DNA of 22,731 nt from an uncultured virus (IMG/VR IMGVR_UViG_3300028590_000010) (taxonomy: Duplodnaviria; Heunggongvirae; Uroviricota; Caudoviricetes): IMG/VR virus record IMGVR_UViG_3300028590_000010, one strand, 5' to 3'. The notes below the pieces were generated by a model. It was not told the origin of the DNA. It did no database searches and saw only the letters and a program-made list of their open reading frames with translations. Below, piece by piece: positions 1 through 14,373 of this stretch; positions within the stretch are counted from its first letter, which is position 1; each line of letters starts with the position of its first letter. A program made the translations under genes and the position numbers.

Positions 1-940
1 GCTTGTCCGCCGTGACGCGCTCGGGCTTGGTCAGCTCGTAGTACGCCATGCCGACCCGGTAGGGCGGGTAGGCGGCGTCCACGAACGGCTTGATCTCCAC
101 GTGCCACGCCCGGTCCGGGACGGGACGCTTCTTCGTGGGCCGGTTGACGTCCTTCTCGAAGAAGATGGACTCCGTACCCCGCGTCTTGGCGACGAGCACG
201 ATCTTCCGGTCGGCGGTCGGCAGCGGCGTGAGCTTGGCCGCCTTGATGGCCGAGGCGTCCACGTTCTCGCCGACCACGAAGGCGCTCTTGGTGCCCCGCA
301 GACCGGTCCGGGTACGGGTGTCGACGTAGGTGGTGTGCGCCGTCTTGATCCGCTCGACGGCCTGCTCCAGACCGGCCTCAGTCGAGGCGTCCCACAGGGC
401 GACGTTGCCCTTGGCGAAGCCGAAGCCGTACATGTGCTGGGCGGAACGCTCGTCCGGGGCGAGTGCCAGCATGGTGATGTTGTCGGCAAGCCCGTCGAGC
501 CGCTTGGTCAGCTCCTCCTGGTGCACGCTCAGCGGCACGCGGCCGAAGCCGCCTGTCCGGCCGCGCCGCCCCCGGCTGACGTTCTCCTCGCCGTCGGTGA
601 GGATGTACGCCATGAAGTCGTGCTTGCCGTACTGCTCCGGCACCGTGGCGAAGTCGTCGATGACCTGGTGAACGGCGTCGGCCAGCGCCGTGCTGCTCTT
701 GATCTGGTACAGCCCCTTCATGCTGGGCAGACGGAAGACGTCCATGTCCCAGATGTGACACTCGACCTCGTTGGAGAACGAGTAGACGGTGATGCGGGTC
801 TCCTCGTTGTCGTCCTTGGACTTCTTCGCGAGGAACTGCACCAGGTCGTCGGTCACCTTGACGACCTTGTCGGCCAGCCTTCTCATCGAGTAACTGGCAT
901 CAAGCGCCAGAGCTATGTGGTTGATGTAATTCTGCTTCAC
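1..940 (-). CDS. von Willebrand factor A (vWA) domain protein; C-terminus runs off the window
   Basis: Not in the ORF track; translated by hand from GTG 940 (RBS GAAGGAGAG): MKQNYINHIALALDASYSMRR...ITVYSFS...STALADAV...AYILTDGEENVS...GMAYYELTKPERVTADK. MIDAS DxSxS, T and TDGxEN motifs present; open to position 1. Confidence 0.9.
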   Translation of the reverse strand, partial: MKQNYINHIALALDASYSMRRLADKVVKVTDDLVQFLAKKSKDDNEETRITVYSFSNEVECHIWDMDVFRLPSMKGLYQIKSSTALADAVHQVIDDFATVPEQYGKHDFMAYILTDGEENVSRGRRGRTGGFGRVPLSVHQEELTKRLDGLADNITMLALAPDERSAQHMYGFGFAKGNVALWDASTEAGLEQAVERIKTAHTTYVDTRTRTGLRGTKSAFVVGENVDASAIKAAKLTPLPTADRKIVLVAKTRGTESIFFEKDVNRPTKKRPVPDRAWHVEIKPFVDAAYPPYRVGMAYYELTKPERVTADK

Positions 941-1260: not shown

Positions 1261-1281
1261 AGATGTCGCCTTCTCGATATA

Positions 1282-1316
1282 CAAAACGCGCACCCGATCG
1301 GCGACGGGTGCGCGTT
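1282..1316 (-). terminator. Intrinsic terminator closing the non-coding unit
   Basis: 12-bp perfect stem AACGCGCACCCG/CGGGTGCGCGTT with 8-nt loop, running into TTTTGTAT on the minus strand. Confidence 0.8.
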
Positions 1317-1355
1317 GTCCGTCCCCTGCACCGCCAGGAGCAGAGAGAACGGTCG

Positions 1356-1444
1356 TAAGCCGGACGGGACTTGAACCCGCACACCCTTACCACAGGGCGT
1401 CCCTCCCGAGCGGCGAGGGGGGATCGACCGCTCAGGTCCGGCTC
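1356..1444 (-). ncRNA. tRNA-like RNA A (89 nt, type II-like, no canonical anticodon loop)
   Basis: Acceptor GAGCCGG/CCGGCTT plus discriminator A; T-arm GCGGG-TTCAAGT-CCCGT; variable arm ACGCCCT-GTGGTA-AGGGTGT; D-loop-like GAGCGGTCGA; no encoded CCA. Confidence 0.75.
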
Positions 1445-1547
1445 TCCAGGCCCATTTCGCACATCTTGGGCGGGCCCACCCTCAATGACCTCAAGCAATC
1501 TTCGAGGTGGTGCTGGCCCCTCGGCGGCCCCTGTCCGCGAGTGGCAG

Positions 1548-1682
1548 TCGGAGCGCCCGGACTCGAACCGGGCTCGCCGTGACGCTGACGTGGAACAGAC
1601 TGGGTCCAGAACGCAGGTTCAGAACATTGTCCACTGTCTCGGCTTTCCAGATGCCTGCCGCTGTTACCCGGCAGACGCTCCG
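1548..1682 (-). ncRNA. tRNA-like RNA B (135 nt, oversized internal arm)
   Basis: Perfect acceptor CGGAGCG/CGCTCCG plus A; T-arm CCCGG-TTCGAGT-CCGGG; D-like hairpin TCTGCCG-GGTAACAG-CGGCAGG; CTGGAAA; then an imperfect hairpin of about 70 nt. Confidence 0.75.
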
Positions 1683-1784
1683 ATGTTCCCCGCCTGCCGT
1701 GACACAGACGGGGACATCCCCACACGTGACCGTTGAGTGTTCCGTGTGGTTCCTTCGGCTCTCGTCCCCCGACGAGTTGCTCAC

Positions 1785-1815
1785 ACACTAGCAGCCGTTC
1801 GGACATACATGTCAA
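1785..1815 (-). promoter_or_regulatory. Putative sigma70/HrdB-type promoter for the tRNA-like RNA unit
   Basis: Minus strand TTGACA (1815-1810), 19-nt spacer ending TGC, then TAGTGT (1790-1785). The spacer is longer than consensus but an extended -10 TG is present. Confidence 0.55.
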
Positions 1816-1863
1816 CCAACTCGCCTACATGCCGGTTAAGTTGACACATGTACACCAGACGCC

Positions 1864-2226
1864 TCACGCCGGGCGCTTGGACTCCACGTCCTCGATCGCC
1901 AGGCGCAGGCCGGGCAGGTGCTGCGTCCAGGTGCAGACCTCGCCGAGGGTGCTGGTGAAGACCTGCCTCGACCGGCGCGGGCCGACGGCCCCTCTGCCGT
2001 TCTCGATCTTCTCGTGCCCCTCGGCCCGGCTGCCGTAGCGTCCGTTGGTGTAGCGCTGCCAGGACTCCCCGACCCTGCGGGTGTAGACCAGGTAGACCGT
2101 GTCGACCACGATCTGCCCGTCCCGGGTCAGCTTGGCCACCTCCGCCACCTGGTCGTCGGTGTAGGTCAGCACGACCTCGTACCGCTCCTCACCCGTGTGG
2201 TGGACCTGCTCCTGCGTGGGCATCAT
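1864..2226 (-). CDS. Hypothetical phage protein (120 aa)
   Basis: RBS AAGGGAGA, high GC3 codon bias. Confidence 0.8.
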   Translation of the reverse strand: MMPTQEQVHHTGEERYEVVLTYTDDQVAEVAKLTRDGQIVVDTVYLVYTRRVGESWQRYTNGRYGSRAEGHEKIENGRGAVGPRRSRQVFTSTLGEVCTWTQHLPGLRLAIEDVESKRPA

Positions 2227-2252: not shown

Positions 2253-3047
2253 CTATGCCTCGAACTCCCCGAACACCTCTGGGTGCCGCATCTTCCAGAG
2301 GACCCATTCCTCGCTGACCCGCCCGGTGTGCGGGTTGGTGCGCACGAGGTCCATGACCTCGACCAGCGTCTTGGGGCGATGCGCACGCGTCCGCCTCTCC
2401 GGCGGCGGCGGGTACAGAGACCTCCCCGAACGCAGCCGCGTCCGGTAGCCCCAGTCCCGGGCTGCGTACTTGTGCAGCACCACCGTGTTGTAGCCGGGGA
2501 ACCAGTCGAACGGATGGTGGGCTATGCCCGCCTCCCGCATCAGCATCTCCCAGTCCCGGCGGGTCTCCGCGATGAAGGACTGGATCGCCCGCACGTCGGC
2601 TTCCGCAGGACGTCGTGGGCTCGCCTTGTCGAACGCCACGAAGTAGCCCCACATCGGCTCGTTCGATGTGACGGGGATTCTCCGCGCCGTCAGAGGGTCG
2701 CTCCTGTCCGCGTCGAACTGCCATCGCGCCACCTGGTCCTCCCTCCTCTTTTTCTTGATGTCCTCTTCCGTGATCCAGCCCGCCATCACAGCCAGACCGA
2801 CGGCCTGCGCAACGGTAGCGACCCCCATGCGCCGAAGCGCCATCGACCGCTGAGTTTTCACCGTGTCAACCGAAAGGTCCAGCCGCCGGGCGGTCTGCTC
2901 CACCATCTCCCCGCGCGCCGCTCCGATGAGCGCCTTGTGCTCGGCATCGGAGATGATGCGGGGGAACCGAGCCAGCGATACGTGAGGGTCGTGCAGGAGT
3001 TCCCTGCGACGACGGACCGTTTCGCTGTTCAACAATTCCTTGCCCAT
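2253..3047 (-). CDS. LuxR/GerE-type HTH protein with unknown C-terminal domain
   Basis: ATG 3047 after AGGAGAGG; ISDAEHKALIGAARGEMVEQTARRLDLSVDTVKTQRSMALRRMGV...AQAVGLAVMAGWI fits the LuxR HTH pattern. Confidence 0.85.
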   Translation of the reverse strand: MGKELLNSETVRRRRELLHDPHVSLARFPRIISDAEHKALIGAARGEMVEQTARRLDLSVDTVKTQRSMALRRMGVATVAQAVGLAVMAGWITEEDIKKKRREDQVARWQFDADRSDPLTARRIPVTSNEPMWGYFVAFDKASPRRPAEADVRAIQSFIAETRRDWEMLMREAGIAHHPFDWFPGYNTVVLHKYAARDWGYRTRLRSGRSLYPPPPERRTRAHRPKTLVEVMDLVRTNPHTGRVSEEWVLWKMRHPEVFGEFEA

Positions 3048-3063
3048 GGCCCCTCTCCTCCGG

Positions 3064-3240
3064 CTACCCGCCCACGCTCCGCCAGGCAGCGACCTGATGG
3101 ATACGCTCGGCACGGATAGCTTCGTACGACCTGCCCTCCCACGGAGCGCACAGCGCACAGCCTGTGCACATGGTGATCACCATGTGCGTGACCGGGTCCT
3201 CCCAGTCGCCGTACTCCATGCCGTAGACGTCGTCGATCAC
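3064..3240 (-). CDS. Small Cys-containing protein (58 aa)
   Basis: GTG 3240 overlaps the upstream stop (GTGA); contains CTGCALC. Confidence 0.65.
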   Translation of the reverse strand: MIDDVYGMEYGDWEDPVTHMVITMCTGCALCAPWEGRSYEAIRAERIHQVAAWRSVGG

Positions 3241-3455
3241 GTCAGCCTGTCCACGGTCAGCGGGTCGGGACGCACCTCGGCGGGCGATGCCCACGACCCG
3301 CCCCGGGCGAACACGCCGGGGGTCAGCTCGGCCCCGACGTGGTACCGGGTACCGGCCTGGTTGTAGCCGACGATCTGCGCCCGGTACGCCGGGCCACGGA
3401 CCTGACTGTCGGGGGTCACGAGGACCACCGTCTTCGCGGGAAGCATGTCACTCAC
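3237..3455 (-). CDS. Hypothetical protein (72 aa)
   Basis: RBS AGAAGGAGA, GTG start, high GC3. Confidence 0.75.
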   Translation of the reverse strand: MSDMLPAKTVVLVTPDSQVRGPAYRAQIVGYNQAGTRYHVGAELTPGVFARGGSWASPAEVRPDPLTVDRLT

Positions 3456-3476: not shown

Positions 3477-4901
3477 TCAGTTGAACCAGTCGACGATCAC
3501 TGCGGCTTCCTTCGCTCGCGTGATCGCCGTGTACATCCACTGGCGGTACATCTGCGGGTGGGGGCGCTGGTCCACCACTATGATCTTGGAGAACTCCGAG
3601 CCCTGCGCCTTGTGCGCGGTCAGCGCATACGCATAATCCCACGGATGTGAGTGCCTGGGGCGCTCCGGGGAGTTGAACGGCAGATCCCGCTCCGCCCCGA
3701 ACTGAGCGGTGGGGCACGCGCCCACGTAGATGTGGACCGGAGCGTCCGGCTTCGCCAGCGGGTGATCGTCGAGCTTGACCACCATCTCCGTCACGATCCC
3801 GCGATGCTTGACGTACGTCACCTCGCCGGTCATCCCGTTGTGGGCGGTGACCATCTGACCGAGGAGCCGGAACTTCGTGCCGTCGTCGGTCATCTCGACC
3901 ACGTCGACCGGGTACGCCTGCCCGCCGAGTGCGACCACCCGGTCACCTTCCCGCACCGGGCCCTCACCGTGGTACGCACGGTTGAACTCGGCACGCAGGG
4001 CGTTGGTGTAGACGATCAGTGCGCCGTCCACCCCGGGGTCGTCGCGCTTCACCAGCCTCTCGAACCGCTTCAGCAGGTCGGGGAAACCGGGGTCGCTCCG
4101 CCTCATCAGCACGGTGTCCGGCTTGGGACTGCCGTACGCCGGGCGCAGCAGCCTGCCCTTCATGCGCACCTCGTAGGCGGCCTGGAGGATTCCGGAGTCG
4201 GCACCCTGCCGGTGAATCTCCGTCAGCTCGTCGTCCGGGTTCATCGTCCAGGGGTTCATCGGGTCCTTGATCGGGGGCAGTTGGCCCCGGTCGCCGACCA
4301 GCAGCACAGGAACCCCGTACTTGCGGATGTCCTCGACGTGCTCCTTCGAGAGCATCGACGACTCGTCGATGATCACGATGTCCCGGTGCCCACCGAGGTG
4401 CTTGCGCCGTTCGCTCTTCAGCTCCTGTGTCACCTGACAGTTGTGCGGTGCGCCGGTACCGCAGGGCAGGAAGGACATCGGGCACTCGCACGCGTCGGGC
4501 ATGCCGCACGCGCACTTGTCCTTGAGAGCGGAGACGAAGTGGTTGGTGATCGAGCACCGGTACACCGGCATCATCTGGTAGACGAGCGAGTGGTAGGTGC
4601 GTACCCTCTCGGCCTGCTTGCCTCCGAGTTTCCTGCGGAGGACGTTCGCCGCCTTGTGTGTGGGCGTTCCGAAGACCGCTTCGCCTTCGATCTCAAGGTC
4701 GAGCTGCTTCATCAGGGTGGTCTTTCCGGTGCCCGCCAGTCCGCCGAGCGCGCGGATCGGGGCGATGCCCTGTCCGTGCGTGTGCGGAAAGGGAGGGCAG
4801 TCGGACCCGCCGTGGCAGTGCACCCAGTTCCTCGGCTGCCGGTTGTACCAGTCGCGGATCTGTTCGAGCGCCCTGGCCTGACCCGGGCTGAGCACTGTCA
4901 T
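3477..4901 (-). CDS. RecD/Dda-like SF1B ATP-dependent DNA helicase
   Basis: Walker A GLAGTGKT, Ia PTHKAA, Walker B IIIDESSM, III VGDRGQLPPI, IV LTEIHRQ, V YALTAHKAQGSEF, VI YTAITRAK. Confidence 0.93.
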   Translation of the reverse strand: MTVLSPGQARALEQIRDWYNRQPRNWVHCHGGSDCPPFPHTHGQGIAPIRALGGLAGTGKTTLMKQLDLEIEGEAVFGTPTHKAANVLRRKLGGKQAERVRTYHSLVYQMMPVYRCSITNHFVSALKDKCACGMPDACECPMSFLPCGTGAPHNCQVTQELKSERRKHLGGHRDIVIIDESSMLSKEHVEDIRKYGVPVLLVGDRGQLPPIKDPMNPWTMNPDDELTEIHRQGADSGILQAAYEVRMKGRLLRPAYGSPKPDTVLMRRSDPGFPDLLKRFERLVKRDDPGVDGALIVYTNALRAEFNRAYHGEGPVREGDRVVALGGQAYPVDVVEMTDDGTKFRLLGQMVTAHNGMTGEVTYVKHRGIVTEMVVKLDDHPLAKPDAPVHIYVGACPTAQFGAERDLPFNSPERPRHSHPWDYAYALTAHKAQGSEFSKIIVVDQRPHPQMYRQWMYTAITRAKEAAVIVDWFN

Positions 4902-4927
4902 GTCACTGTCTCCTTCTTCTTACGCGA

Positions 4928-4956
4928 CCGCCGCCGGGCATGGAACCCGGCGGCGG
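4928..4956. terminator. GC-rich intergenic stem-loop
   Basis: 11-bp perfect stem CCGCCGCCGGG/CCCGGCGGCGG, 7-nt loop, no U-tract. Confidence 0.55.
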
Positions 4957-4972
4957 CCCGATCACTCTACCC

Positions 4973-7227: not shown

Positions 7228-7580
7228 CTCGTTGTCCCCTTCACCTTCAGAATCTGGTCGGCCAGCTCAAGGGCCGCCAGAATGGAACACTCCGCCTTGT
7301 CGCAGACGGAGTGGTCGACGTCGTCGTAGGCGCTCAGCGCCGCGACGTCAAGCAGGTCCGCCACCATGCGGACGAACGCCGGTGAACACATGTCCACCAG
7401 AGCGGCCTGCGGCCAGGTGGCGGTGAGCACGTCGTGCGACGGCCCGAGGAAGGTGATGCTGTTGGTCAGCACCGCCACGTCCACGAACCACCGCCCCTCC
7501 TTGTACTCCGCATCACGAGCGAGCTGCCGGAGATAGGCGGCGGCCTTGGTCATCCGCTCACGCGGACTGTCCGCCATCAC
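7224..7580 (-). CDS. Hypothetical phage protein (118 aa)
   Basis: RBS GAAGGAGA, GTGA overlaps. Confidence 0.8.
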   Translation of the reverse strand: MMADSPRERMTKAAAYLRQLARDAEYKEGRWFVDVAVLTNSITFLGPSHDVLTATWPQAALVDMCSPAFVRMVADLLDVAALSAYDDVDHSVCDKAECSILAALELADQILKVKGTTR

Positions 7581-7825
7581 GTCTCCTTCGCCCAGTCACC
7601 AGCCGGGCCACCCGGCCGCTGCTCACTGAGTACGGCGTACGCATAATCGATCACCGCACCGTAGAGCGGCGTCCGGTACAGGCGGATGAAGTCCACCTCC
7701 CGCGCTCCGGCCGCCAGCATGATCCGCTGAACGCAGGTGACCGGGTCGTCGGGCCCGTCCTGGGCGATGGTGCCGAGGAACTGGGCAGCTCGGCGCACCA
7801 TCATGAAGTCCTCGCGTTCGTTCAC
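7577..7825 (-). CDS. Hypothetical protein (82 aa)
   Basis: GTG 7825 overlaps the upstream stop; MNEREDFMMVRRAAQF. Confidence 0.7.
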   Translation of the reverse strand: MNEREDFMMVRRAAQFLGTIAQDGPDDPVTCVQRIMLAAGAREVDFIRLYRTPLYGAVIDYAYAVLSEQRPGGPAGDWAKET

Positions 7826-8076
7826 GAGGACACCTGCGTCACGCGCTCGTACGCCAGGTTCAGAACCGACTCGGACGTACCGCGCAGAACCAGGCTCCGC
7901 GCCACGCGGGAACCGATGTCCTGCGGGTCGTCCTGCACCTCGGACAGCGCGTCGTCCAGCTCCTTGAGGTAGCCCGTCATCGACTCCACCGCCCGGACCA
8001 GGATGCCGTCGATCTCCGGGGTCCTCTGCGCCGCACCCACGAGTGCGTCGATCACCGTGGTCTCCTCGTCGCTCAT
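7822..8076 (-). CDS. Hypothetical helical protein (84 aa)
   Basis: ATGA overlap at 8073-8076; MSDEETTVIDALVG. Confidence 0.75.
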   Translation of the reverse strand: MSDEETTVIDALVGAAQRTPEIDGILVRAVESMTGYLKELDDALSEVQDDPQDIGSRVARSLVLRGTSESVLNLAYERVTQVSS

Positions 8077-8357
8077 GCCCCCGCCTCGCGGTCCTGGCAT
8101 CCGCCGTCGTAGGCGCGCTTGCACTCCTGACACAGCACGTGCCGGTCTTCCGGGTGCAGCAGCAGCAGTCCAGCCTTGCGCAGGCGGGCGAGGAGACGCC
8201 ACTGCGCGTCCGTCTCACAAGCCATGACTGCGGTGATCACGTCGCTCTCGTATGTGGCGTCGGAGTTGATCAGCTCCTCGGCCCGCCCGGGGTAGTTGGT
8301 GTACGTGCCGTACTGTGCCAGACCCGGCGGCACGGTCCACTTCTCTCGGTCGGTCAC
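8073..8357 (-). CDS. Hypothetical protein with C-terminal CxxC..C (94 aa)
   Basis: GTGA overlap; MTDREKWTVPPG...LCQECKRAYDGGC. Confidence 0.75.
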   Translation of the reverse strand: MTDREKWTVPPGLAQYGTYTNYPGRAEELINSDATYESDVITAVMACETDAQWRLLARLRKAGLLLLHPEDRHVLCQECKRAYDGGCQDREAGA

Positions 8358-8662
8358 GACTCCGCCCCCTCCCGGTACAGCCGCCGGTACACGTCCGACT
8401 GCTGGCACATGTAGTTGTGGAACCGGGTCCAGATGGCCCGGGTCCGGTGGTTCTCGGTGTACTCGACGATCAGAGCGCGGATGGTCTTGATGTGCTCCTC
8501 GTCCACCTCGATCACCCAGCGGTTCAGCCTGTTCCAGCACGTCTCGTGCAGCGCCCGGGAGAGGTTCCGCTTGGCCTCCGTGTCCGCGTTGCCGGTCATG
8601 CGCAGCAGGCACTGAAGCAGAGCGTTCGTCAGCTCCACCGTCTCGGTCTCGGTCTTCGTCAT
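8354..8662 (-). CDS. Hypothetical protein (102 aa)
   Basis: ATG 8662 after AAGGAGAAGGGG; MTKTETETVELTNALL. Confidence 0.8.
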   Translation of the reverse strand: MTKTETETVELTNALLQCLLRMTGNADTEAKRNLSRALHETCWNRLNRWVIEVDEEHIKTIRALIVEYTENHRTRAIWTRFHNYMCQQSDVYRRLYREGAES

Positions 8663-12730: not shown

Positions 12731-13246
12731 TCACGAACAATTGCACCGGTGGGTCACCGACGGCACCAGGAAGCAGCTCGGGCACGGCTCGGCCACCGGC
12801 TTCACCGTAGTCGGGGTGCGCACCTCGTAGTCGACGGACTTGAACCGCGCACCGCCGGGCACCACGTGAACCCGGTCGACCCCGTCCAGCGCTTCACTGC
12901 CGTCACCGTCGGACCACGGCATGCGAACCACCACCCCCTGCGCACCGCCCTCGACGACGATCCACTCCTCGTCGGGACGGTCGAGCAAGCCGGGCACCGG
13001 GTCACGTGCGTACCGCAGGAACACCCGCATGTAGCCGGTCTCGTCGGCCAGCGGAAACTCCCGCACCGGCCGGTCGGAGAAGCCCTTCGGGGTCGGCGCT
13101 CCGACGTAGAAGGCACGGGAGCGCCCCGTCGCGTTGCGCTCCCTCAACACCCGGCCGGTCAACTCACGGGAAGCGAACTTCTCCATCCCGATCCCGGAGA
13201 CCGGGCGACGCCCGGTCGGAACATACAGCGCGTACACGGGCATCAC
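12731..13246 (-). CDS. Hypothetical protein with C-terminal CPSCF...CNC Zn-finger-like motif
   Basis: RBS-like AAAGGGGA; ends CPSCFLVPSVTHRCNCS. Confidence 0.8.
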   Translation of the reverse strand: MMPVYALYVPTGRRPVSGIGMEKFASRELTGRVLRERNATGRSRAFYVGAPTPKGFSDRPVREFPLADETGYMRVFLRYARDPVPGLLDRPDEEWIVVEGGAQGVVVRMPWSDGDGSEALDGVDRVHVVPGGARFKSVDYEVRTPTTVKPVAEPCPSCFLVPSVTHRCNCS

Positions 13247-13710: not shown

Positions 13711-14373
13711 CTACCTCTCGTAGTACTCGTCACGCACCCGGTGCAGCCACGCCTCGACCGCTCCCGCGTCGGGCTGCTCGGGCAGCACCGAGGGGTTGGC
13801 GTCGAACGCGGCCTCGTAATCCCGCAGCAGCTGCGCTGCCACCAGCACGTCGCCGAGCGCCACCTGCGTCCCGAACGACTGGACGTCCATCGGATGGTCG
13901 AGCCGGAGCGTCAGCGAACCCGTCGACCACAGCTCGAAGCCCTGGATCAGCAGCCGGTTCAGGTGCCGGGCATGTTTCGCCACACGCTTCCGCAGCGACA
14001 CATCCTCCAGGTCCCACAGCCGCTTGAGTTGCTGGGTGGCGTAGCCGAGGTAGGCGTTACGCACCCGGGACGCCGACAGGAACGACGACCGGATGTCGAT
14101 CAGCTCCTGCCCCAGCGGGGTGAGCGTCTCGTACTCCTCCAGCCACAGCAGCTCCATCACCGTGGGGTTGCCGTTCAGCGCGAGGCGGCAGAACTTGCCC
14201 GCCTCGTGCATCGTGACGTCGGGGTCCTTCTCGACGACCGACTCCTGCGGCTTGCTCAGCCCGTGGAACTGCCGGGTCGGGGCGGCGAACACCCCGAGCC
14301 GGTCGATGCCCGAGCCCTCGTGCGCCAGCCCGTAGGCCGTCGAGCCCACCACTCCGGACAACAGGATCTTCAC
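13711..14373 (-). CDS. Pol-beta-superfamily nucleotidyltransferase (RlaP/PF10127-like)
   Basis: GSTAYGLA...S-G-I-D-RLGVF, DVTMHEAGKF, GNPTVMELLW, AYLGYA, KHARHLNRLL. The expected SDxD reads SGxD. Confidence 0.88.
   Translation of the reverse strand: MKILLSGVVGSTAYGLAHEGSGIDRLGVFAAPTRQFHGLSKPQESVVEKDPDVTMHEAGKFCRLALNGNPTVMELLWLEEYETLTPLGQELIDIRSSFLSASRVRNAYLGYATQQLKRLWDLEDVSLRKRVAKHARHLNRLLIQGFELWSTGSLTLRLDHPMDVQSFGTQVALGDVLVAAQLLRDYEAAFDANPSVLPEQPDAGAVEAWLHRVRDEYYER

Follow-up and report, generated by a model that had tools for sequence, protein, structure and literature searches.

Phage tRNA genes are usually read as aids to codon usage or as spares against anticodon nucleases. Phage T4, which belongs to an unrelated phage and host group, makes two small stable RNAs with tRNA-like ends (species 1 and 2; rnaC, rnaD), which are encoded among its tRNA genes and whose role is unknown; they resemble the RNAs reported here by description only. 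In the eukaryotic mascRNA/MALAT1 elements (RF01684) a tRNA-like fold serves as RNase P/RNase Z cut site within a longer non-coding transcript, and in tmRNA an acceptor stem and a T arm surround a large non-tRNA insert. Y RNAs (YrlA, RF02553; YrlB; Yrn1 and Yrn2 of D. radiodurans) are also non-decoding tRNA mimics and combine a T arm with a hairpin that bears GG in its loop; YrlA is encoded on the strand of rsr, the Ro60 gene, and bound by the Ro60 protein. Here we describe a minus-strand unit at positions 1281–1815 of a 22,731-nt stretch of DNA, in the following called the window, from an uncultured virus of the Caudoviricetes (IMG/VR IMGVR_UViG_3300028590_000010). The unit contains two tRNA-like domains and has homologues on two metagenome contigs, L011 and L012. 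The observation of an earlier note on the sequence holds: the RNA is real, conserved, structured and non-decoding, and the unit is an undescribed family of non-decoding tRNA mimics. The phage keeps under selection tRNA bodies that do not decode, in the same genome as Y RNAs and RNA-repair genes.

In the excerpts of Chen et al. (2014, PMC4201824) consulted here, Y RNAs occur in actinophages, come in sets, some with a T arm only, and are made in polycistronic precursors, some of them shared with tRNAs; the YrlA RNA of M. smegmatis is cleaved by RNase P and receives CCA. The same excerpts place YrlA within 4 kb of rsr, give GGUCCGA as a Ro60 contact and locate the Ro-binding motif (GNCGAAN0–1G or GGUCCGA-like) near the 5′ end of the Y RNA.

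Two tRNA-like domains without an anticodon arm

Reading of the sequence confirmed two domains, each of which combines an acceptor stem of 7 bp with a T stem of 5 bp, a TTCRAGT loop and a discriminator A. In domain 1 (1548–1682, minus strand, 135 nt) the acceptor stem is formed by 1682–1676 with 1555–1549 (7 Watson–Crick pairs) and the T stem by 1572–1568 with 1560–1556; the T loop is UUCGAGU and the discriminator A stands at 1548. The acceptor is followed by a UC linker and a hairpin of 5–8 bp at the D-arm position (loop GGUAACAG, with GG in the loop), then by an invariant single-stranded linker and an irregular arm of ~70 nt that replaces the anticodon arm and is separated from the T arm by 3 nt. 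The tip of this long arm is the most variable stretch of the domain, and a 54-nt block at the 5′ side is conserved non-tRNA sequence. Domain 2 (1356–1444, minus strand, 89 nt) pairs 1444–1438 with 1363–1357 in the acceptor stem (6 Watson–Crick pairs and 1 G-U) and 1380–1376 with 1368–1364 in the T stem, around the loop UUCAAGU and with the discriminator A at 1356. Here an AC linker leads into a long hairpin of 9–12 bp with a C-rich tip (UCCCCCC in the window, ACCCCCUA in L011, CCAGAGAGUC in L012) and a short hairpin that abuts the T arm and whose loop reads GUGGUA, GUGGUC or CUGGUA. The GG of this loop could pair with the T loop as G18-G19 of the D loop do in tRNA. The window contains 3 copies of the motif GGTTCRANTCC where 0.07 would be expected, the third copy (12836–12846) lying within a coding gene. 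Partners for an acceptor strand are not rare by chance (we estimate ~0.3 for a 7-nt partner within 300 nt with G-U allowed, and false T-arm candidates had partners as well), and the acceptor stems are therefore validated through their conservation and not through their mere presence.

The acceptor stem, the T arm with its UUCRAGU loop, an unpaired discriminator A and the absence of an encoded CCA are shared with tRNA (RF00005), whereas an anticodon arm, with a 5-bp stem and a loop of 7 nt, is conserved in neither domain. From one homologue to the next the tips of the arms vary in both length and sequence, so that nothing acts as a fixed anticodon; the proposal that the acceptor/T half is kept while the decoding half is lost is thus borne out, acceptor stem and T arm being kept in the homologues. 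Domain 2 furthermore lacks a D arm, and that of domain 1 (5–8 bp) is atypical. Class II tRNAs have a long variable arm, at the place of which domain 2 carries a hairpin. ARAGORN called 0 tRNAs and 0 tmRNAs in the window, and the unit had 0 Rfam matches at gathering score. The best match under relaxed conditions was tRNA-Sec (RF01852) on domain 2, with 22.5 bits where 47 are needed (E 0.066); domain 2 has no anticodon loop with UCA. The relaxed search yielded nothing on domain 1 and no RF00005 match even at E 10. The domains are therefore non-canonical, as the earlier note had put it, and no known family fits them. Could they nevertheless be unusual decoding tRNAs, for example with introns or expanded loops? 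The canonical acceptor stem, T arm and discriminator and the weak tRNA-Sec match would fit such tRNAs. We consider this very improbable, because no anticodon arm is conserved and the arm tips vary, because neither ARAGORN nor the tRNA model of Rfam recognises the domains although both detect the ordinary tRNA-Met and tRNA-Arg of the phage in the DNA adjoining the window, and because neither gathering nor relaxed Rfam searches matched a group I intron.

A blastn search of the unit against GenBank phages gave no match, and two pattern scans of IMG/VR derived from the window gave 0 matches each. Searching metagenome contigs with the von Willebrand factor A (vWA) protein encoded downstream of the unit yielded six loci. 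L011, with 77% identity in the vWA protein, is fully syntenic: it contains the 120-aa gene found upstream of the unit in the window, TTGACA-19-TAGTGT, the leader, both domains, the terminator, a membrane open reading frame (ORF) and the vWA gene. In L012 (55% vWA protein identity) a TAGTGT site is followed by a different leader; domain 1 is missing, and spacer motifs, domain 2 and the terminator stand directly ahead of the vWA gene. A covariance model (R1), for which the window and L011 copies were used, detected the L012 copy with 23 bits (E 0.002 in 123 kb) and nothing else convincing there, whereby the E-values of the purpose-built models are rough. A second model, R2 for domain 1, matched the window and L011 only, in a search that did not extend to whole phage records. 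The two models are a starting point for defining the family. Several candidates were rejected: the best R1 match in five phage records (22.2 bits) overlaps an annotated tRNA-Phe in the tRNA cluster of Satis, and an R2 match of 27.6 bits at window positions 4861–4963 consists of a terminator hairpin and the start of a helicase gene, without a T loop. The pattern matches in genome_contigs (at least 120) correspond to chance, as ~130 would be expected (estimated for 19 fixed bases, 30 gap lengths and 596 Gb); Rfam found 0 families on 20 of 80 of these loci, and R1 reached at best 16.2 bits (E 0.06) over all 80.

Compared with L011, domain 1 is 85.3% identical, domain 2 72.2%, the spacer between the domains 74.3% and the leader 68.3%, while the 39-nt linker behind domain 2 (1317–1355, minus strand) is poorly conserved and, with 54.5%, has the lowest identity among the segments compared. 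The flanking genes show 74–81%. The RNA parts thus keep roughly the identity of the genes, whereas the neighbouring unconstrained linker has drifted. Folding of the whole unit gave a z-score of −3.43 against shuffled sequences. The presumed preference for the minus strand was seen in domain 2, which has a minimum free energy (MFE) of −51.2 kcal/mol (z −3.47) on the minus and −39.7 kcal/mol (z −1.25) on the plus strand, but not in domain 1, for which the strands do not differ (−60.2 minus, −58.1 kcal/mol plus). The MFE structure of the whole L011 transcript independently contains both four-way junctions; in L012 the shared architecture lies 2.0 kcal/mol above the MFE.

Covariation was assessed with RNAalifold for the window and L011 (47 pairs, 5 compensatory and 0 broken in spacer and domain 2; 66 pairs, 5 compensatory and 0 broken in leader and domain 1); two MAFFT alignments (A3, A6), in which stems were misaligned, did not enter the pair counts. 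When the three sequences of domain 2 were aligned to R1, 96.4% of the cells of 28 pairs were paired and 11 pairs showed two-sided changes. Of 500 shuffles, 0 reached any of these measures, and slid controls gave at most 5 such pairs with 39–47% paired. In domain 1 all 38 predicted pairs are kept in L011, 35 of them never vary and one, in the T stem, is compensatory; the shuffle test (245 of 500 reached the observed value) is uninformative as the pairs hardly vary. Compensatory changes, the absence of which would have counted against the earlier note, were hence found in domain 2, spacer hairpin H5 and a leader hairpin and are nearly lacking in domain 1, whose case rests on sequence conservation. 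The aberrant D and anticodon regions and the near lack of covariation in domain 1 would suit decaying, functionless tRNA pseudogenes. That reading is extremely improbable in view of the compensatory changes in domain 2 and H5, of an identity at the level of the neighbouring genes next to a linker of 54.5%, and of the unit's own conserved promoter hexamers and terminator. Being conserved in related phages, the domains are working RNAs.

Layout of the unit and its non-coding status

On the minus strand the parts follow each other in the order promoter-like site, three leader hairpins, domain 1, structured spacer, domain 2, 39-nt linker and terminator. The spacer forms two hairpins. In the first (1479–1510, minus strand) the 3′ strand is GUCAUUGAGGG (1489–1479), which is identical in the window, L011 and L012 while the opposite 5′ strand varies. 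The second, H5 (1449–1476, minus strand), has a 6-bp stem, all six pairs of which form in each of the three sequences with four of the six positions covarying. Its conserved loop includes GUGCGAA in both the window and L011, and GCGCGA takes this place in L012. The leader begins with a CUCGUC/GACGAG stem closed by a GGGG loop (hairpin 1, 1761–1776, minus strand); in L011 one of its pairs changes from U-A to U-G and none is broken. Hairpin 2 (1720–1749, minus strand; CCACACG/CGUGUGG) has an A-C at its third pair in L011, unpaired in RNAalifold, and two inner pairs changed on both sides, and the long stem of hairpin 3 (1683–1718, minus strand) keeps 11 pairs in L011 with two two-sided and three one-sided changes and none broken. 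All hairpins named in the earlier note (near 1761–1776, 1720–1749, 1682–1718 and 1488–1508) were found in place.

A structured leader and spacer would also be expected if the domains were processing punctuation, that is, if cuts by RNase P and 3′ processing at the domains freed the hairpin RNAs of leader and spacer as functional products, much as at the tRNA-like cut site of mascRNA and in polycistronic tRNA/Y RNA precursors. Both are structured and partly conserved, with GUCAUUGAGGG invariant in all three sequences and H5 covarying, and L012 retains spacer and domain 2 but not domain 1. A plain cut signal, however, would need neither the 54-nt block and the long arm of domain 1 nor the covarying hairpin of domain 2, and the leader is less conserved (68.3%), so that on our analysis this role appears unlikely.

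The promoter-like site comprises a −35-like hexamer TTGACA (1810–1815) and a −10-like hexamer TAGTGT (1785–1790), both read from the minus-strand sequence and separated by a 19-nt spacer. Both hexamers are present as proposed and invariant in L011, where the spacer differs at several positions, but a strict sigma-70 scan called 0 sites, this one included. TAGTGT occurs four times on the minus strand and not at all on the plus strand of 42.5 kb; each of the other three copies precedes further RNA genes of that strand, and the hexamer is also found at the head of the L012 unit and of a Y RNA cluster in a relative of the phage (G002, see below). An imperfect inverted repeat (1807–1851, minus strand) overlaps the −35 site but is missing from L011. 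A 301-aa protein encoded two genes upstream of the unit (2253–3158, minus strand) has a GerE/LuxR-type helix-turn-helix and a weak match to a sigma factor in PHROG; it could be a candidate reader of TAGTGT-type promoters. At the other end, the clean terminator that had been noted was recovered by the terminator scan (1281–1316, minus strand; 12-bp stem at 1316–1285 followed by a U tract) and is kept in both L011 and L012.

The region between the genes (1261–1863, ~603 nt) shows no codon-position signal. ORFs of 86–127 aa are present in the region, and those within 1238–1815 have a G+C content at third codon positions (GC3) of 0.61–0.73 versus 0.97 for the 120-aa gene upstream (1864–2226, minus strand), for which searches of IMG/VR and of GenBank phages gave no relative. 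Beyond the gap follows a small membrane ORF with a likely GTG start at 1260 behind a GAAGG site that is kept in L011. Indels between the window and L011 measure 1, 2, 3 and 8 nt, so that no reading frame is kept. The earlier note had called this the largest gap between genes: it is the largest or second largest in the gene list, which also holds a gap of 834 nt (7581–8414) that is mostly occupied by an ORF (7577–8218). A tmRNA-like RNA or a protein-coding region, to which the enclosure of a large insert by acceptor stem and T arm and the ORFs might point, has next to no probability: pair 3:70 is G-C or A-U and never G-U, the alanine identity pair, a pseudoknot ring is lacking, neither ARAGORN nor Rfam matched tmRNA, reading revealed no conserved tag frame, and the GC3 values and frame-breaking indels speak against a protein. 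A match to the mascRNA family is likewise absent from the unit, with weak RF01684 scores of 13–15 bits at other phage loci.

A possible link to Ro60 and Y RNAs

We propose that minus-strand transcription starts at the unit's own promoter, stops at its terminator and produces one precursor of ~500 nt, which would yield two stable tRNA-shaped RNAs unable to decode. Each would keep the 12-bp stack of acceptor and T arm, the T loop and a GG-loop hairpin able to form the tRNA elbow, with a long arm occupying the place of the anticodon arm. A 12-bp acceptor/T stack is a recognition element for RNase P, 3′ trimming and CCA addition, and the tRNA-maturation enzymes of the host would be expected to excise the RNAs by RNase P cleavage at the 5′ side and trimming at the 3′ side, with addition of CCA expected because none is encoded. 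The tRNA fold would provide stability, processing and docking, and specificity would most likely reside in the conserved non-tRNA parts, namely the 54-nt block of domain 1, GUCAUUGAGGG and the H5 loop.

The most telling context was absent from the earlier note: YrlA-type RNAs and RlaP are encoded by the same phage and Ro60 by a relative. IMG/VR record G001 (37 kb, estimated to be 31% complete) is identical DNA that extends 19.7 kb past the window start. At its far end (L008, G001:C1, 1–440, minus strand), ~19.3 kb past the window start, at least two YrlA-like Y RNAs lie behind TAGTGT. They match RF02553 with 39.2 bits (E 3e-7, full length) and 17.4 bits (partial), the gathering score being 69, and are built in the order T arm, closed acceptor-like stem, D arm, with GGUGCGAAGG-type motifs. 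A reading of these units as circularly permuted tRNAs was dropped in favour of the Rfam YrlA match. The contig ends inside the cluster, and an rsr gene may follow. The 20 kb adjoining the window contain six T-loop motifs on the same strand, two of which are called as tRNAs. Just after tRNA-Arg(CCU), a ~250-nt RNA-like stretch with two T arms (L008 11160–11410, minus strand) has an outer GGGAGGG/CCCUCCC acceptor-type stem with T arm that encloses a T arm, a closed stem and a GG-loop hairpin; ARAGORN called neither element. RlaP (PF10127, E 3e-20; window 13711–14373, minus strand) is a nucleotidyltransferase of the Pol-beta type; in RNA-repair systems it is linked to RNA ligases, and no ligase was seen on the window or G001 DNA that carries it.

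G002 is a complete 111.5-kb relative whose vWA protein is 59% identical to that of the window. It encodes a TROVE/Ro60 protein (56.8 bits; L025, G002:C1:51500-55500, minus strand) with YrlA matches of 57.3, 39.4 and 15 bits just upstream, in a 1-kb cluster of seven T-loop motifs that includes three ordinary tRNAs (Phe, Ile, His). This cluster also contains a tRNA-like element of ~80 nt that was not called and that has a T arm and the acceptor GGGAGAG, while a tRNA-Leu is found on the other side of the Ro60 ORF, close to it. The Y RNAs of both phages repeat GGUGCGAAGG, one letter from GGUCCGA. The lineage thus carries Ro60, Y RNAs, RlaP and tRNAs.

The domains of the unit share with Yrn1 the normal 5′-to-3′ order of the tRNA parts, whereas YrlA has a permuted order and a closed acceptor-like stem in place of the open 7-bp acceptor end seen here. 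The unit also lacks the long terminal Ro-binding stem of Y RNAs, and the Ro-type motif is only approximated in the H5 loop. The link does not go far enough to include the unit in the Y RNAs. We tentatively favour a role of the domains as accessory protein-binding tRNA-mimic RNAs of the lineage's Ro60/Y RNA and RNA-repair toolkit, with a partner that we infer. That they are, more specifically, new Y-RNA-like cofactors, normal-order counterparts of YrlA with an open, CCA-tailed and possibly aminoacylated end, which act with Ro60 or the vWA protein to steer RNA decay or repair during infection, seems improbable.

Several findings weigh against an accessory role in this toolkit and against the strength of the conservation data. 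No YrlA match was obtained in 1200–1900 even at E 10, and the H5 loop differs from GGUCCGA at two of seven positions, at three in L012. The unit lies ~21 kb from the YrlA-like cluster, whereas YrlA is placed within 4 kb of rsr in the excerpts of PMC4201824. G001 (about one third of the genome) has 0 TROVE/rsr matches, and the rsr-bearing G002 has no convincing domain 2 homologue (best 14.3 bits, E 0.15) and no domain 2 copy upstream of its vWA gene. The covariation counts derive from only two to three homologous sequences, the domain 2 alignment (A10) was fitted to R1, which favours the model, and covariation is nearly absent in domain 1 (1/38 compensatory). Among 13 runs listed with the sequence, none is an RNA run.

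The RNAs might instead serve as decoys that, without taking part in translation, soak up host enzymes attacking or sensing the acceptor end or body of tRNA. Nucleotidyltransferase toxins of the AbiE/MenT type and sensors of uncharged tRNA are examples of such enzymes. Retention of the acceptor/T half without the decoding half would suit this role, as would the phage's investment in tRNA and RNA-repair functions (RlaP, tRNA-Met, tRNA-Arg) and the 5′ part of domain 2, which on reading resembles a class II tRNA. Anticodon nucleases, however, would not be titrated by RNAs without an anticodon loop, no defence or anti-defence gene is linked to the unit, and a simple decoy leaves the strongly conserved non-tRNA blocks unexplained, which makes this role doubtful in our view. 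If the partners of such tRNA mimics were found, they could reveal in what way phages exploit the shape of tRNA to recruit host proteins of RNA processing, quality control or defence, or to divert them.

Phage lineage and tRNA-like genes near vWA homologues

The window has a G+C content of 66%, and most of its genes lie on the minus strand; their products include a Dda-like helicase, a D5-type primase-helicase, regulators and the RlaP nucleotidyltransferase. Its DNA is contained in soil metagenome runs, and reads of four DNA runs mapped to it gave 0 variants and 0 joints. The closest named phages are the Mycobacterium phages Myrna and Phabba and large Streptomyces phages, with only ~35% protein identity. 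The host is probably an actinobacterium; a Streptomyces host, as hinted at in the earlier note, was not substantiated, the nearest proteins coming from phages of both genera at this level of identity.

The vWA protein (window 2–940; full ORF L001 111–1241, minus strand) has 376 aa; the vWA domain is N-terminal, and the C-terminal part is rich in beta structure. Its AlphaFold model has a mean pLDDT of 64.9, Foldseek returned only generic vWA domains, and no PDB sequence matched. A gene with a TerD domain follows two genes on (L008 18293–18973), and the consulted parts of PMC7824862 describe Ter modules with TerF (vWA) and TerD in phages. For these reasons the vWA protein was set aside as an RNA partner; that its gene is Ter-like, part of an abbreviated Ter-type module, is the simpler reading.

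Non-canonical tRNA-like genes not called by ARAGORN occur within ~1 kb of vWA homologues in five of eight lineages (window/L011, L012, L015/L016, Phabba/Myrna and L013) and are missing from L009/L010, L014 and Satis/Kela/Frankenweenie; four further Satis-like phages and one cyanophage are left out of this survey. Together with the unit, these genes suggest that large actinophages possess a wider repertoire of tRNA-mimic RNAs, most of it without annotation; one such RNA lies under an annotated coding sequence (CDS) of Myrna. The latter is a 117-nt tRNA-like RNA conserved between Myrna (L005 ~1735–1855), where it lies under CDS gp17, and Phabba (L004 3011–3130), where it occupies an unannotated gap of 487 nt; its T stem and a hairpin with a GGCC loop have undergone compensatory changes. 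A stem-loop in a second element of Phabba (~3356–3438) could carry a UAU anticodon. Neither ARAGORN nor Rfam called these Myrna and Phabba elements.

Two AT-rich phage contigs each carry a pair of tRNA-like genes of ~126 nt upstream of a vWA homologue (L015 2123–2248 and 2316–2442; L016 ~365–510 and ~585–705). Their acceptor, D and T arms are normal, and where the anticodon arm would be they carry ~70 nt of inserted sequence. A UGCA-GNRA-UGCA hairpin and ACGGUUAUC repeats are common to the inserts, and the first 16 residues of the vWA homologue are 88% identical to the window protein. In L013 a 91-nt tRNA-like element without an ARAGORN call (4154–4244) has the acceptor GGGCCCG, a T arm and an aberrant middle, and it lies ~35 nt past the stop codon of the vWA homologue.

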